Origin: Oceanispirochaeta sp.
Lineage (GTDB): Bacteria > Spirochaetota > Spirochaetia > DSM-2461
Direction: 5' to 3'
Length of the DNA: 64,000 bases
NCBI GenBank assembly: GCA_963663385.2
Contig: CAXXXD010000002.1
Location: forward strand, 1,440,001-1,504,000
Numbering within the stretch: position 1 is the first letter of the stretch; each line of letters opens with the position of its first letter. This document shows positions 54,282-64,000 of the stretch, piece after piece. The translations under genes and the position numbers were made by a program. The notes beneath the pieces were generated by a model, which worked only from the letters and a program-made list of their open reading frames with translations, did no database searches and was not told the origin of the DNA.

Positions 54282-54603
54282 CACGGAGCACTCGGGGCGA
54301 TAAGCTGCGAACCGCACAGAACTAAATGTTCTTTTACAAAGGAATTAGAGAAGGGAAATTGAAGTATTTGACGAGAGTCAAGACTGCTGCGTACCGGAGG
54401 CCCGAAGGGCTGAGGAACGCAGTAACTGGTAGAAATGTTCAAATCCTGAAACTTTACGGTTGAGGGGTTTGTCCTAGACGTTAGTTTTCTTTAGAGATAA
54501 AGGGACTGACTTTCGCTTTCAGCTGTTCAGGATGATTACATCCGCTTTGCAATGGCTGAGGGTTTTGGTAGAAAGTTATCCACCTTGTGTGGATAAATTA
54601 TAT

Positions 54604-56143
<1,540 letters not shown>

Positions 56144-56340
56144 AGCGTGAAAGGTATAAGTCTTGAGGTTTGTACGCCTTGAGCAGTGAGTCACTATTTA
56201 TAGTGCCTATCAGTAGTTACGTTCCTCGGTCTTTGACCTGTGGTACGTAACTTGCTTGATTCTCGTCAACTACTTCTAATTTCCCGTCAGATAATTCCTT
56301 AAAGGGCTTTAGGCGATTTGAGTTTAAGGCCAAACAATTA

Positions 56341-56414
<74 letters not shown>

Positions 56415-56548
56415 TAAAATTAAGTTTGTATCTTGAACAGGATCAAACTTTTTTTACGCCGAATTGCTTGCAGTGAGGCGGGAGATGCGGGAGGCTTTAC
56501 TCTTGCGGATCTTTGAAAAGGTAATAGCGAAGGGATAAATAATAATAT

Positions 56549-59472
<2,924 letters not shown>

Positions 59473-59583
59473 ATATTATTATTTATCTCTTCAGTTTTAT
59501 ATAAATTGCAATCGCTTTGGAAGCTAGGAATACTTCTGGAGAGTGAATGCTTCTTGTCAGGGTAAGACTTGATAAGATTATTA

Positions 59584-59692
<109 letters not shown>

Positions 59693-59697
59693 TATTT

Positions 59698-59731
59698 GCC
59701 CCTTGTCTTAGGATGAGGGGCTTTTTCTTTT
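59698..59731 (+). terminator. rRNA operon terminator
   Basis: GCCCCTTGTC-TTAG-GATGAGGGGC followed by T-run. Confidence 0.75.
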
Positions 59732-59762: not shown

Positions 59763-61394
59763 TTATAACTCTGAAAAGCAGTCCCCCTGACAGAATCCTT
59801 CCTCATGAAGGGGGCAGTTCCTGCAGATATCAAATACCGGTCTCTGAATAAGGTTATTTAGCGTAGAGTAATAGTTTCCCGGTAAATTGTCCGCCCCTGA
59901 ATATTCCTTGAATCGGTATGTATCTTTTGTTAATGCTTCGCAGGGACTGTAAGTCCCATCGGGATTAAGATTAAAATGAGAAGTAAAATCGTTCCTGTCC
60001 AGATTGCAGATATTGTTTAGATGAGTGTTCCGGAGCAGGTACTTTGATGATTCATTGTCAAAGAGGCAAAGCGGTATAGGGTTTGATATGATGATTTTAT
60101 GTCTTCTGAATTCATATCTGCTTTTTAAATGTTTAACAATAGAGAGAAGATAATCCGCATAGGTTTTAATGGTTTGTTCCGACTTAACTTTATTACAGCG
60201 GGATAATGAGGCTGACAGGCTGATAACCGGATATTGAACTATATCAATATACTTGTTAAGGAAATCCCAGCTCTCATTTTCAGTAAAAGAAACATCATAT
60301 CGCAGAACAATCTGTTTAGAGCAGGTTGTTGCTTTCAGGATATTCTGTGTTATCTGGCGGATCTGCTGTTCTGATTTCAGATTTCTATCTTCAAATAGCT
60401 GAATCACAATTTTTTTCAGATCTTCGAATCTGATAATCTGTGACCAGATATTTTCATGAAATTGCGCCGTTGATGTTATGGTTGTCTGTAGATTGAATCG
60501 TGCTGTTTCAGACAGATAATTCAGGCAGTGGGGTAAAAGGTTTTCCAGACCAGACAGGTTCAGGGTTTTCTTTTCTTTTTCTGATGCGGTAATATTTAAA
60601 ATATCTTCAAACTTTTCCCAATTTATCTGCAGATCCGGAGCTGACGTGTCTTTTTTCCGGTTGGTGCAGTGAAAGCAGCTCATCGGGCCTGAATCCCGTA
60701 AATTAATGGAAACCTGGGTTGAAACCGATTCAAAGATCTTCTCCCGTTCTGCCCTGAATGTTTCATATAGTTTGAATTTCCCTTCTTTGAAAACTATTGT
60801 GCTGTCCAGATTTTCAATTCCCGGAAAATATGCCAGAGACAGGTAATGCTGCAAAAAAAGTTCATCCGGAATGCTGGAGAGAAGGTTTGAAAGATTTCTG
60901 AGTCTAAGTTCTGACAAGAGATGCAGAAAGAGGCTGTTATTAAAATGCCGTATATCAGGGTGAAAATCCTTTTTTTCAACCAACTTCCTTTTCCTGAATG
61001 AGAAGGCGGGATCCATCATAAGGAGATCAAATGCTTTATCTCTGATTGATGGATCATGGTAGAAGAGGAGAGGCAGTATATTTTCGGTTTGATTAAAATC
61101 AAAGTTGTTTTTCTGAAGATCCAGTAAACCTTTGAGGATAAAATCATTTGAAGACTGATTACCTCTGCTTAATTCAGGATTGACTTTATGGCCGGACTCT
61201 CCTGCAGTTGACTCATTCTCCACTTCCTGTTCCATTTGATTAATATTGAATTCTTTACCGATGGATCTGATCTGATACCATATTTTTTTTATTTTACCCA
61301 TATAAAAACCCAGCTTTCTTAAATGGGCAACAGAGTTTTTAGGGTCCAGAAGAAGAATTATAAAAAGAATCAGTATAATCTCAATTAATACCAT
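59763..61394 (-). CDS. TatB-like N-terminus fused to a degenerate radical SAM core and SPASM domain
   Basis: EIILILFIILLLDPK...LRKLG.YMGKIKK (TatB-like TM plus amphipathic helix); GPMSCFHC (CxxxCxxC missing first Cys); PLC, NIC, NPDG.YSPC, CRNC-x7-C-x3-C. Confidence 0.7.
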   Translation of the reverse strand: MVLIEIILILFIILLLDPKNSVAHLRKLGFYMGKIKKIWYQIRSIGKEFNINQMEQEVENESTAGESGHKVNPELSRGNQSSNDFILKGLLDLQKNNFDFNQTENILPLLFYHDPSIRDKAFDLLMMDPAFSFRKRKLVEKKDFHPDIRHFNNSLFLHLLSELRLRNLSNLLSSIPDELFLQHYLSLAYFPGIENLDSTIVFKEGKFKLYETFRAEREKIFESVSTQVSINLRDSGPMSCFHCTNRKKDTSAPDLQINWEKFEDILNITASEKEKKTLNLSGLENLLPHCLNYLSETARFNLQTTITSTAQFHENIWSQIIRFEDLKKIVIQLFEDRNLKSEQQIRQITQNILKATTCSKQIVLRYDVSFTENESWDFLNKYIDIVQYPVISLSASLSRCNKVKSEQTIKTYADYLLSIVKHLKSRYEFRRHKIIISNPIPLCLFDNESSKYLLRNTHLNNICNLDRNDFTSHFNLNPDGTYSPCEALTKDTYRFKEYSGADNLPGNYYSTLNNLIQRPVFDICRNCPLHEEGFCQGDCFSEL

Positions 61395-61395
61395 A

Positions 61396-62091
61396 TCAGC
61401 CCCATTTCAGGAGTTTTGCAGCAGCAAGACAGAGGAGATACAGGATGAACAGGGGGATCGCTACAATAAACTGGGATAGTAGGTCCTGAGTCATGACAGC
61501 CGAAATCAACAGGGCTACGGGAATAAAATAGGGAATGAATTTAATAAGTCTGGCTCTTTTCAGAATTCGGAATCTGAGCAGTATCAGGGTAATTACCGGA
61601 AACTGGAGCGCTACACAGAAGGCCAGGGTGAATTTGAAATAGAAGCTGATGAATTCATTATAGGAAAAAATCTTGGTCAGACTATCCGGAATAAATGCTT
61701 TAGATTCCAGAAAATAGATTGTTATGGGGAGAAAAATTCTTACAGCGTAAATGGCTGTACAGTAGAGAATTAGACTTAACAGAAAAAGAGTTGAAAAAGT
61801 TGTTTTCTCTTTTTTTTCCAGAGCCGGGAGGATAAAAAGAAGAATATTAAACAGGAAAACAGGAAGAGACAATAGCAGTCCTATATACAGTGAAACCTGG
61901 ATCCTGATAGTGAAGCCTTCATAGACTTTCATTACATGAAAATCTATTTGAAAGGTGCTGTTCAGATATCCTATAAAACGAGGGAAAAGAATGTAGGCGC
62001 TTATTGAAAAAATTATGAAAAAAACTAACGCAATTATCAGTTTCGTCCGTAACTCAATGAGGTGTTGTGTAAATGTGAGGTTTTTTTCCAT
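61396..62091 (-). CDS. tatC: Twin-arginine translocase subunit TatC
   Basis: HLIELR, FILPAL...EK, FQ-like LQFPV, D.LSQ...AIP...LY; multi-TM hydrophobic pattern; next to tatA. Confidence 0.9.
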   Translation of the reverse strand: MEKNLTFTQHLIELRTKLIIALVFFIIFSISAYILFPRFIGYLNSTFQIDFHVMKVYEGFTIRIQVSLYIGLLLSLPVFLFNILLFILPALEKKEKTTFSTLFLLSLILYCTAIYAVRIFLPITIYFLESKAFIPDSLTKIFSYNEFISFYFKFTLAFCVALQFPVITLILLRFRILKRARLIKFIPYFIPVALLISAVMTQDLLSQFIVAIPLFILYLLCLAAAKLLKWG

Positions 62092-62298
62092 TTAATGGTT
62101 ATTGGAATCGGAATCGGATGGGTCATCATCCGGTTTTGAAGATTTCTCTTCACTCTCTTCTTTCATTCCGCTTTTAAGACCTTTCTTGAATTCTACCAGC
62201 CCTTCACCGATTGAGCGGCCCAGTTTCGGCAGCTTGGATGAACCGAAAATGAGTAATATGGCACCGCCAACTACAAGTATTTCTACAAGACTGATCAT
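62092..62298 (-). CDS. tatA: Twin-arginine translocase subunit TatA/E
   Basis: EI.V....LLIFG..KLP.LGRSIG.G..EFKKG. Confidence 0.93.
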   Translation of the reverse strand: MISLVEILVVGGAILLIFGSSKLPKLGRSIGEGLVEFKKGLKSGMKEESEEKSSKPDDDPSDSDSNNH

Positions 62299-62331: not shown

Positions 62332-62595
62332 CTATTTAGTCTGTCCGTAATAGTAGTAATAATAGTAATAATAATTATAGTAGTCGGAATAGTAGTAGTA
62401 ATTGTAATAATTAGAGTAGTAATAGTAGTAATTGTAATAGTTAGAGTAATTGTAATAATCAGAGTAAGTAAAAAGATCACAGCTGCTGACGACTACTGCT
62501 GTTCCGATACCAAGACCGATTTTTCCAATTCTTTCCAGAGCCTGTCTACGGGAGATAGTCGGTTTTTCTTTGCTTTCACCAGTATCAGTTCCCAT
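62332..62595 (-). CDS. Tat-signal, Tyr-rich lipoprotein; putative radical-SAM-modified precursor peptide (87 aa)
   Basis: SD GGAG 7 nt before ATG 62595; SRRQAL twin-Arg, h-region, VSS-C39 lipobox; tail with 4x YS(D/N)YYN and poly-Tyr. Confidence 0.85.
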   Translation of the reverse strand: MGTDTGESKEKPTISRRQALERIGKIGLGIGTAVVVSSCDLFTYSDYYNYSNYYNYYYYYSNYYNYYYYSDYYNYYYYYYYYYGQTK

Positions 62596-62627
62596 TTTCT
62601 TCTCCAAAAAATGTTCTCTTATACTTA

Positions 62628-62656
62628 AGTATAAATTCAATAATATCATATATCTA
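62628..62656 (-). promoter_or_regulatory. Putative internal sigma70 promoter for the precursor gene, overlapping a 16-bp palindrome
   Basis: TAGATA-N17-TATACT on minus strand; TTATACTTAAGTATAA palindrome at 62619-62634. Confidence 0.45.
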
Positions 62657-63760
62657 CTCATTCGGAAACATTTCTATTCGATTCCCGGTTAAAGGCTCGA
62701 TATACTGTGTCATCAGTCTTTGCACTATTTCACAGGCTTCTCCCCGTTTCATAATATCCCCCTTCAAAGCCAGTGTATCGATAGGGCATCCTCCATGACA
62801 CATCCCCCAGAAACGGCAGTATTTGCAGTCAGTCTGTTTCAGAACAATTTGCCGTTTATTTATGATATCTCTTTTACTGTGTTCCAAGGCCGCTCTGATA
62901 CCGGTATTCCGGATATTTCCATAATCTGCCAGGTTTTCATCTCCTGCTTTTCCGCATTGGGAAAGCTTTCCCGTTGGACCTATGTAGAGCCAGTGGTTGG
63001 CGCAATTACCGGCATAATCACATAGAAGTCCACCTTTGCCATTTATAAACCTGATAAACATATCAATTGGACGAAGACCTTCATACTTTTCCGGATTTGC
63101 CAGGTAGATCGGCACCAGCTTTCCAAGGAAGTCGGCATACTCTTCGGGCGTAATATTTATATTGAAGGGATCATCCCCGTAAATGTAAATTTTATTAAAG
63201 GCTGGAGTTGTCTTAGTGTTTATATTTTTCAGGTGGTTAAGTATTCCTACCGGATTTTCAAGGGATCTTCTATGAACGACATATATAACCCCCCAGCTCA
63301 GGTTGTTCCGTTCAGCCAGTTCCGTTCCCTTGAAAAAAAGCTCCTTATAGATCTTTGAATCCCTTTTTTCTCCTATTCCCCGAATACCTTCTATGGGGTC
63401 GTAACTTGAACCTATCATATCAATCTTCAACTCTTTAAATACATCAACTAATTCCTGTGTCAAGCAAGTCATATTTGATTGGATCAGATGCCGGATTCTG
63501 TTTTCAGTCTCTCTGCAATAGGTTCTCTGGTATTCCAGTGCCTTTCTGAAATAGTCAGGACCAAGAAGGCAGGGTTCTCCTCCATGCCAGGTCAGCTGTA
63601 TGGATTCATCCGGGAATTCCTTTAAATAGTCATTCATACGTTTAAACACTGTTTCCAGTATTTCGAAAGTCATTATTTTTTCCTGATGCTTTTTTATAAC
63701 ACCGCAGTAAAGACAGTTGGAATTGCAGAGTTCAATGGGTTTGAAAATTATAACTGCCAT
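62654..63760 (-). CDS. Radical SAM/SPASM domain enzyme (anSME/peptide-maturase clan)
   Basis: CNSNCLYC, WHGGEP, QSN; SPASM C-x5-C...C...CKYC-x5-C-x3-C...C (8 Cys). Confidence 0.92.
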   Translation of the reverse strand: MAVIIFKPIELCNSNCLYCGVIKKHQEKIMTFEILETVFKRMNDYLKEFPDESIQLTWHGGEPCLLGPDYFRKALEYQRTYCRETENRIRHLIQSNMTCLTQELVDVFKELKIDMIGSSYDPIEGIRGIGEKRDSKIYKELFFKGTELAERNNLSWGVIYVVHRRSLENPVGILNHLKNINTKTTPAFNKIYIYGDDPFNINITPEEYADFLGKLVPIYLANPEKYEGLRPIDMFIRFINGKGGLLCDYAGNCANHWLYIGPTGKLSQCGKAGDENLADYGNIRNTGIRAALEHSKRDIINKRQIVLKQTDCKYCRFWGMCHGGCPIDTLALKGDIMKRGEACEIVQRLMTQYIEPLTGNRIEMFPNE

Positions 63761-64000
63761 TTTTCGCCTTCCCGGCGGGGCTCCCGCTTCGTTGCTGAAT
63801 CTATATATTTGAGAATGCTGTCAAACAGGATTTTATAGGAATCATCTTTTTCACACTGGTTCAGGTAAGCCATCCGGCAGCTTCTCCAGGCCGAGCAGAA
63901 AGAACACTTTTCATTATCTATAAATACTCTGGTGCGAATTTCCCGGATTTTTCTGTTTTCACAATCATTGATAATCTCTTTCAGCTGTTCCAATCCGGAA
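63748..64000 (-). CDS. C-terminal fragment of a protein with a SPASM-like Cys motif (5' end outside window)
   Basis: Frame is open to the window edge; CSFCSAWRSC (Cx2Cx5C); overlaps the rSAM start by 13 nt. Confidence 0.6.
   Translation of the reverse strand, partial: SGLEQLKEIINDCENRKIREIRTRVFIDNEKCSFCSAWRSCRMAYLNQCEKDDSYKILFDSILKYIDSATKREPRREGEKWQL

Follow-up and report, generated by a model that had tools for sequence, protein, structure and literature searches.

The Tyr-rich precursor gene and its cassette

The stretch of DNA analysed in this work, hereafter the window, spans 64,000 nt (G000:C2:1440001-1504000; contig CAXXXD010000002.1 of the Oceanispirochaeta sp. assembly GCA_963663385.2), and the DNA past its end was analysed as well. 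A gene close to this end (62332..62595, minus strand) encodes, according to the translated open reading frame (ORF), an 87-aa Tyr-rich peptide with a lipobox and a signal resembling those of the twin-arginine translocation (Tat) pathway. The gene lies within a cassette, the members of which are all on the minus strand, abut or overlap, and form an operon. In the direction of transcription, the cassette encodes a 331-aa radical S-adenosylmethionine (SAM) protein, rSAM1 (C2:1504626-1505621, just outside the window), carrying a CVRSCPYC motif and a CxxCx7CxxxC end; a 293-aa protein of predicted radical SAM fold, of which only the 3' part is in the window (63748..64000; whole gene C2:1503748-1504629); a 368-aa radical SAM/SPASM enzyme, rSAM2 (62654..63760), which carries the CNSNCLYC motif and is assigned by NCBIfam and structure matches; the Tyr-rich precursor; a 68-aa TatA (62092..62298; Pfam TatA_B_E, 6.9e-15); a 231-aa TatC (61396..62091; Pfam TatC, 1.8e-34); and a 543-aa protein (59763..61394), in which a TatA/B-like membrane anchor is predicted to precede a helical domain and a degenerate radical SAM/SPASM domain. 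The whole points to an undescribed system, in which a peptide is modified inside the cell and then exported to the envelope.

Residues 1-38 of the peptide (62482..62595) constitute the signal, or leader, region. Here an acidic/basic n-region is followed by the segment SRRQALERIG, starting with S15-R16-R17-Q-A-L as expected for a twin-arginine motif, by the hydrophobic stretch IGLGIGTAVVV (residues 26-36, rich in Gly, Thr and Val), and by two Ser residues. V36-S37-S38-C39 fits the lipobox pattern [LVI][ASTVI][GAS]C, and Cys39 (62479..62481) is the putative site of cleavage and lipidation. The Tyr-rich core (residues 44-83; 62347..62466) is composed of YSD, YSN and YYN units, and the peptide ends with YYYGQTK, GQTK being its C-terminus. 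All the features highlighted in the original prediction, namely 28 Tyr in 40 residues, four YS(D/N)YYN cassettes (residues 44-49, 50-55, 60-65 and 69-74), the RR motif and the lipobox, are found in the ORF. A GGAG ribosome-binding site (62602..62605) is recognizable in the sequence 6 nt 5' of the ATG at 62595.

The precursor is the most Tyr-rich of the 74,887 ORFs of at least 35 aa of the genome, with 28 Tyr in 40 residues versus 11 for the runner-up, and its Tyr density is far beyond chance, the genome-wide Tyr share of long ORFs being 3.6%. The interleaving of TAT and TAC codons had been taken to indicate selection at the protein level rather than slippage. The final run (TAT TAT TAC TAT TAT TAC TAC TAT TAC) had been read correctly, and the mix of 17 TAC and 11 TAT codons excludes a pure one-codon microsatellite; yet the order of codons is no different from random (17 runs vs 14.4 +/- 2.5 in shuffles, P(>=17) = 0.20), and the mix alone does not demonstrate selection. 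The Tyr repeat is not an assembly artefact. It is bridged by contigs from three public runs of three studies, one of which may coincide with the source of the assembly, and in all of them it has the same length of 112 nt and identical flanks, a single SNP being found outside the gene in one run. Two other readings of the same DNA were rejected. An Ile/Thr-rich 50-aa ORF is present in an overlapping frame, but conservation across phyla is observed only in the Tyr frame with the RR head. A longer, 109-aa product starting at 62661 was discarded in favour of the start at 62595, which has the GGAG site and fits the length of the relatives.

Conservation of the precursor family and of the gene order

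The precursor is a real, conserved gene. Relatives of rSAM2 were searched by a word-indexed method, which returned 216 proteins at E <= 1e-3; the best 120 of the 216 share 45-63% identity with it, and the few among the matches listed which have a named source span several phyla. Scanning one genome per species revealed 27 clearly orthologous loci (L002-L028; 41-62% identity to rSAM2) in five phyla, from Spirochaetales, Bacteroidales and other Bacteroidota, Ignavibacteria, Planctomycetota and Nitrospinales (Nitrospinota). The trio made of a radical SAM enzyme, a pseudo-radical SAM protein and a radical SAM/SPASM enzyme recurs across these loci. The 293-aa protein is present in 27/27, and the 331-aa enzyme is encoded directly upstream in 25/27; the L003 contig begins within the 293-aa gene, and in L027 only a distant copy is found. 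A profile built on 17 precursors recognized a family member in 22 of the 27 loci (E <= 1e-5). As to the other five, matches in L016 and L017 are weaker, the L023 precursor was recognized by eye, the L022 sequence stops within the enzyme gene, and no precursor was found in L027. In the window genome the profile matches the precursor alone (E 6e-24). The original prediction of an exported, lipobox-bearing precursor, of the kind found among peptides made on ribosomes and modified after translation (RiPPs), is reinforced by the radical SAM/SPASM genes upstream and the TatA and TatC genes downstream, and by the conservation of this arrangement. Peptide modification being itself a deduction, the product might be a plain lipoprotein exported by Tat or Sec, its adjacency to radical SAM genes bearing no functional meaning. 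Such a coincidence is highly improbable, as precursor and enzyme trio occur together in 22/27 loci from five phyla, and within the genome the family exists only at this site.

Precursors share the head [ST/K]RR[ED]ALKR[IM]A, a hydrophobic stretch, a Cys residue and a tail made of Tyr, Ser, Asp and Asn. In the alignment of the 17 synteny-verified precursors R16, A19, R22 and C39 are invariant, and Asp or Glu directly follows the Cys in 12/17. When run against 1.84 billion representative sequences, the profile matched 189 proteins at E <= 1e-3, 30 of which reach E <= 1e-10; family statistics were computed on the best 150 of the 189. RR motif and post-signal Cys are kept in most homologues: the former is found at the motif in 118/150, the latter 12-44 residues further on in 116/150. 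Tails are at least 15% Tyr in 140/150, their composition being 30% Y, 18% S, 9% N and 8% D. The modal spacing of Tyr is 3, and the commonest Tyr-led triplets are YSS, YYS, YSD and YSN. The family is therefore widespread, with 189 profile matches and cassettes in five phyla, and the ten members looked up by exact sequence are either unnamed or labelled "hypothetical protein". To our knowledge these tails are among the most Tyr-rich sequences, and such extreme Tyr content may give the product material or redox properties out of the ordinary.

The Tat genes of the cassette

In the window genome, which is 98% complete, TatC and the TatA family are each represented by exactly one gene, and the two genes lie in the cassette. 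Among the 21 genomes of the same class which were listed, TatC is found in only one other, and 153 of the 301 genomes of a phylum sample contain it. In six cassettes (the window, L002, L003, L004, L005 and L014) a TatC gene comes after the precursor, and five of these, all but L002, contain TatA too. The cassette TatC is the sole TatC in 4/6 of the corresponding genomes. In a tree of 27 TatC sequences, which includes one outgroup row with a very long branch, maybe a wrong ORF, the six cassette TatCs form one clade (support 100/97), apart from the second copies of the genomes G312 and G314. Tat genes are absent from 19/19 non-spirochaete cassettes, and all 13 non-spirochaete cassette genomes searched have a high-scoring TatC elsewhere. 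The distribution suggests that, in hosts devoid of Tat, the cassette brings Tat genes along, a pattern expected if the peptide needs Tat.

A regex census of Tat signals singled out the precursor as the only convincing candidate in the genome. When the TIGR01409 Tat-signal model was run on the 150 relatives, 24 scored at E <= 0.05 and 11 above the cut-off, and some have canonical RRxFLK heads. In the remaining weak N-terminal matches the counterpart is mostly the Tat-signal region of another protein, from formate dehydrogenase-associated, iron oxidase and MsrP families. The idea that the Tat signal may double as the leader of the peptide is plausible, as the conservation of RR(E/D)ALKR(I/M)A exceeds the requirements of Tat, and the Arg at position 22 is invariant. 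Enzymes of the lipoprotein route are encoded in the genome, Lgt (PF01790) being identified at 1.9e-66 and LspA (PF01252) at 1.7e-33.

Radical SAM enzymes and the TatA/B-like fusion

The best NCBIfam matches of rSAM2 are TIGR04083, DynA, anSME and DarE, with E values of about 1e-33 to 1e-37 and 114-130 bits. The anSME model TIGR03942 was matched at 121.1 bits, the cut-off of 349.45 not being reached. Scores obtained with the cyclophane synthases AmcB, GrrM/OscB, YhhB and FxsB are 81, 80, 72 and 38 bits, versus cut-offs of 425, 310, 445 and 370, respectively. The closest solved structures are anSME (2.6e-30), and then ChlB (8e-11).

The 293-aa protein belongs to no curated family, and searching NCBIfam gave one chance-level match only. 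Its AlphaFold2 model (pLDDT 85.9) has as top Foldseek matches the radical SAM/SPASM peptide maturases CteB, anSME, ChlB and SuiB (TM 0.50-0.58, E ~1e-3). The CxxxCxxC motif is lacking, and three invariant Cys residues are found in a CxxCxxWRxC motif. The protein is read here as a cluster-less, radical-SAM-fold partner of the two enzymes.

The N-terminus of the 543-aa protein was aligned to the cassette TatA by hhalign (probability 83.7%, E 8e-6). In the AlphaFold2 model, residues 2-16 form a membrane helix, a kink is found at Pro18, and a long amphipathic helix spans residues 18-47; this anchor is followed by a disordered linker, by a confidently modelled helical domain, and by a beta/alpha barrel with a SPASM-like end, though the match to the SPASM domain is weak. 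None of seven orthologues reached the 21-bit gathering score of Pfam TatA_B_E, and 3/7 scored 12-15 bits. The N-terminus may therefore resemble a TatA/B anchor in its working, as the model suggests, though its scores stay below the threshold of the family. Fusions of this type have been identified, among the loci fetched, in 7/8 of those labelled as spirochaete. Word-indexed searches performed with the fusion returned, among the matches listed, only itself or generic radical SAM proteins. The orthologues in L002, L003, L005, L008 and L014 have kept CxxxCxxC and GGEP, and the L002 one, which was scanned, matches radical SAM families at up to 1.5e-14. In the window fusion the first Cys is replaced by Gly (G-x3-C-x2-C) and GGE by GLE, and in L004 all three Cys are lost. 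Judging from this degraded motif, the fused SPASM domain is probably non-catalytic in the window genome.

A model for maturation and export

It appears fairly probable that the Tyr-rich peptide is the substrate of a radical SAM maturation and Tat export cassette. The data show the gene, its family, the order of the genes in the cassette, the status of its Tat genes as the only ones of the genome, and the assigned folds; we infer the modification of the peptide, the chemistry involved, dependence on Tat, lipidation and final function along the following lines. Since they depend on SAM and a reductant, radical SAM enzymes act in the cytoplasm, and the Tat cargo is folded or bulky. Taken together, these notions would place the modification of the tail first, export by Tat second, and cleavage and lipidation at Cys39 last. 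The peptide would be made in the cytoplasm, where the 331-aa and 368-aa enzymes may work on the Tyr-rich tail, assisted by the cluster-less 293-aa protein; the RR head would serve both as a handle for the enzymes and as a twin-arginine signal. The most likely chemistry would start with a hydrogen being abstracted from a side-chain carbon in the third residue of a Tyr-x-(Ser/Asp/Asn) unit, with a cross-link to the Tyr ring formed next, a triceptide-like reaction which may be repeated many times along the tail. The modified, bulky peptide would then be moved by TatA and TatC of the cassette, the TatA/B-like fusion being located at the translocase, where its fused domain, in the window genome, probably acts in substrate binding only. 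After export, cleavage would occur before the Cys of VSSC, and the Cys would be lipidated. The final product would be a lipid-anchored, Tyr-rich and probably fibrous structure on the envelope.

Repeated cross-links between Tyr rings and side chains at Tyr-x-(S/D/N) units are probably the modification, as the nearest curated families are mostly aromatic cross-linkers, ChlB is the second-nearest structure, and the repeat has a period of three. The original prediction that YxD/YxN triplets may be cyclophane sites is in line with this, as Tyr-x-(S/D/N) units dominate the family and the spacing of Tyr fits the aromatic-X-X motifs of triceptides. The suggestion that the terminal YYG may be a splicease-type site did not hold, YYG being found at that place in 0/16 synteny-verified relatives; YG occurs somewhere in 72/145 tails, as expected for such a composition. 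Biaryl cross-links between Tyr residues were considered as well, and found no support, as no P450 gene resides at the locus. A prediction of the complex formed by rSAM2, the precursor, SAM and three 4Fe-4S clusters scored 0.06, versus a mark of 0.32.

Several observations weigh against the maturation and export model. The window peptide misses the TIGR01409 and PF10518 Tat-signal models, both when tested directly and in the six-frame search of the genome, in which these two curated models gave nothing above cut-off genome-wide, most control genomes being positive. The head RRQALERIG deviates both from the family consensus and from RRxFLK. The claim of a Tat signal stands as to the RR motif, the hydrophobic stretch and the TatA and TatC genes next door, not as to the curated models. 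The tools used for the census of Tat substrates, regex and curated models, are crude, and the sole Tat system could simply be a housekeeping one, located here by chance. A strict lipobox is found in only 25/150 relatives, and a relaxed one in 68/150. The assignment of the fusion to TatA/B rests on the 83.7% profile match and on sub-threshold Pfam scores. All enzyme matches of the cassette are far below the family cut-offs, which makes the chemistry a guess. Finally, rSAM2 is nearest in sequence to anSME, which oxidises Ser or Cys rather than forming cross-links, and, anSME being nearer than ChlB, oxidation of Ser is a live alternative.

Some of the same data may be read differently, by hypothesizing that the RR head is a recognition leader only, that Tyr residues are converted into a small released molecule, as in the case of PQQ or mycofactocin, and that Tat serves other substrates. 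The leader motif, tighter than Tat requires, the failure of the window peptide with the curated models, the lack of a transporter gene in most non-spirochaete cassettes, and the presence of PqqE and MftC among the weak radical SAM matches are all compatible with a diffusible product or cofactor. However, six cassettes include Tat genes, their TatCs forming a clade of their own, and no other Tat substrate was found in the genome. In addition, most relatives have a hydrophobic stretch and a Cys after the motif, some with RRxFLK heads pass TIGR01409, and no peptidase gene was seen in the window cassette. All this makes a diffusible product quite unlikely, and maturation followed by export to the envelope is the preferred reading.

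Comparison with known systems

The cassette fits the criteria of no curated family, and in its logic most resembles triceptide pathways and the HXS antiphage system. Triceptides contain three-residue cyclophanes formed at aromatic-X-X motifs, and ChlB acts on Tyr-Asp-Arg, according to the part of PMC11499958 available. They are made by radical SAM/SPASM cyclophane-forming enzymes (3-CyFE) such as ChlB, OscB/GrrM, YhhB, HaaB and HtkB, and are characterized by a bond between aromatic ring and C-beta, at a cost of 2 Da per motif. As in triceptide pathways, a SPASM-type radical SAM gene adjoins that of a short precursor with many aromatic-X-X units, and ChlB, besides being the second closest solved structure to rSAM2, is a fold match of the 293-aa protein. 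Differences are marked, however. The cassette has three or four radical-SAM-fold proteins instead of one, its leader is a putative twin-arginine signal with a lipobox, Tat genes are included, protease and ABC exporter genes are not, and rSAM2 scores 38-81 bits versus cyclophane-synthase cut-offs of 310-445.

In the HXS system, HxsB, HxsC and HxsD carry out the maturation of an effector with His-Xaa-Ser repeats, which acts in the periplasm; the route followed by HxsA to the periplasm is left open in the part of the report available, and 99.7% of the systems reside in Pseudomonadota (PMC13128918). The product of the Tyr cassette might similarly be an effector of envelope defence, for example a periplasmic barrier to phage entry, a hypothesis which concerns the role of the peptide and is compatible with the maturation and export mechanism. 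Architectures are parallel: as far as the same source goes (PMC13128918), in either system two radical SAM enzymes, one of the SPASM type, and an accessory protein mature, putatively so in the Tyr cassette, a repeat protein with a period of three (X-x-Ser), in the cytoplasm and before its export to the periplasm. Moreover, rSAM2 matches HxsB (TIGR03978) at E 1.5e-16 and rSAM1 matches HxsC (TIGR03977) at E 1.4e-4, and the cassette is sporadic, being found in 3 of the 301 genomes of the phylum sample. The tails of seven of the best 150 representatives (P0171 and six others) mix His and Tyr, and weakly match HxsA3 or HxsA4 (best 2.9e-7, 31 bits, below cut-off); it is possible, on sequence grounds, that they bridge the Tyr-repeat and the His-Xaa-Ser families. 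Yet the Hxs scores are far below cut-off (60.3 bits versus 370 for HxsB, 20.8 versus 267.9 for HxsC), and no match to HxsD was found. PADLOC reported generic viperin-type radical SAM matches only, and the cassette is surrounded by housekeeping genes and an rRNA operon, not by a defence island. Furthermore the tail is acidic and Tyr-rich, not basic, so that the charge-based DNA binding proposed for HxsA does not transfer to it. A defence role akin to that of HXS is overall unlikely. Tyr takes the place of His, which is missing in the window peptide, the cassette lacks HxsD and peptidoglycan-binding domains, the window peptide has no NCBIfam match, and the Tyr-repeat family resides in five other phyla. 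Finally, the export route, left open for HXS in the part of PMC13128918 available, is made explicit by the Tat genes.

Likeness to other radical SAM systems is more limited. The enzyme anSME, as proposed for rSAM2, acts in the cytoplasm on a protein carrying an export signal, and is its closest solved structure, but the peptide lacks the C/S-x-P/A-x-R motif, and no sulfatase gene is found at the locus. DarE and DynA, which cross-link aromatic side chains, are among the top curated matches of rSAM2 (8e-33 and 3e-35, respectively), but scores of 114-122 bits contrast with cut-offs of 450-650. The cores on which they act are heptapeptides or nonapeptides containing Trp, not Tyr repeats, and darobactin and dynobactin systems export via ABC-type transporters. 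More generally, radical-SAM-modified peptides are normally released via proteases and ABC exporters, and Tat is known for the transport of folded enzymes.

Within the class of radical-SAM-matured, exported repeat peptides, novelty is seen here in the private Tat module and in the fusion of a TatA/B-like anchor to a maturase. A search of the literature retrieved no description of the precursor family, of its motifs, or of a natural radical SAM peptide exported by Tat. The only text found combining Tat and RiPPs concerns, in the part available, the engineered display of nisin (PMC11048544). Tat signals and Tyr-rich precursors are not mentioned in the available text of PMC10288494 and PMC10352776, the supplements of which may list enzymes. 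If the model is correct, the cassette would be a natural case of Tat exporting a cross-linked peptide, the twin-arginine signal being also an enzyme handle. It would also offer a tractable answer to the question, open for HXS in the portion of the report available, of the path taken to the periplasm by a protein matured in the cytoplasm.

Variants of the cassette

In three relatives (L021 9040-9804, L025 8604-9353, and P0161) a Peptidase_S74 domain directly follows the Tyr-rich part (E 4e-16 to 4e-18). This "chaperone of endosialidase" domain is a familiar part of trimeric phage fibres, and its position hints that the tail forms a fibre, possibly trimeric; the sequences thus suggest that the Tyr-rich tail of the family can fold in this way. 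A bolder picture may be drawn, in which maturation and a private Tat translocase would be in physical contact: the TatB-like anchor, with its fused radical SAM/SPASM domain, would dock at the cassette TatC, and the Tyr-repeat peptide, once cross-linked (some lineages adding glycosylation, or trimerisation by S74), would be passed straight to Tat, ending up as a cross-linked, lipid-anchored Tyr fibre on the envelope. The proposal is put forward tentatively, and we regard it as doubtful; were it true, a new kind of surface structure, built by RiPP chemistry, would emerge, having a barrier, adhesive or redox role.

Cassettes vary in composition as well. In seven non-spirochaete loci, among which L006 (7359-8249), a heptosyltransferase-like gene (~295 aa) is inserted between the SPASM enzyme and the precursor. 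A gene resembling B12-binding radical SAM methylases is found in three loci, L009 (9377-10846), L012 and L024, the latter labelled as spirochaete. In the spirochaete cassettes L002 (5865-8010), L003, L004, L005 and L008 the fusion is followed by a YcaO-like gene and/or a gene encoding a 366-384-aa protein; L002, L003 and L008 carry both. The YcaO-like protein matches TIGR03266 at E 2e-13, below cut-off, and its 366-384-aa partner has no NCBIfam family. None of these genes (heptosyltransferase-like, B12 methylase, YcaO-like and partner) occurs in the window genome. Variant precursors reside in Bacteroidota of the termite-gut type (L016 4368-4718, L017 2948-3394, and L023 8400-8861); their head reads KKRxAFKRF, the Cys is missing, the spacer is longer and the repeats are NYSNNYS.

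Surroundings of the cassette

A complete rRNA operon lies on the plus strand of the window at 54602-59692 (16S, 54602-56142; tRNA, 56341-56414; 23S, 56549-59474; 5S, 59584-59692), and converges on the 543-aa gene, only ~70 nt and one hairpin being found in between. The hairpin (59698..59721) is G+C-rich and, as judged from its sequence and its position between the last cassette gene and the converging 5S rRNA gene, is likely a two-way terminator. At the opposite side, outside the window, a phosphorylase-superfamily gene resembling the nucleosidases acting on methylthioadenosine and S-adenosylhomocysteine (MTA/SAH), and HpnG (C2:1505722-1506396, plus strand), is divergent from rSAM1, and promoter-like sites are found in the gap between the two. 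This gene may contribute to the clearance of 5'-deoxyadenosine, and its adjacency fits a heavy radical SAM turnover. Away from the locus, and at no site within the window, an identical 68-aa ORF beginning with MKREACFLSS is found at C2:118258-118464 and at least nine other sites on C2, C3 and C4, its recurrence marking a repeated element.

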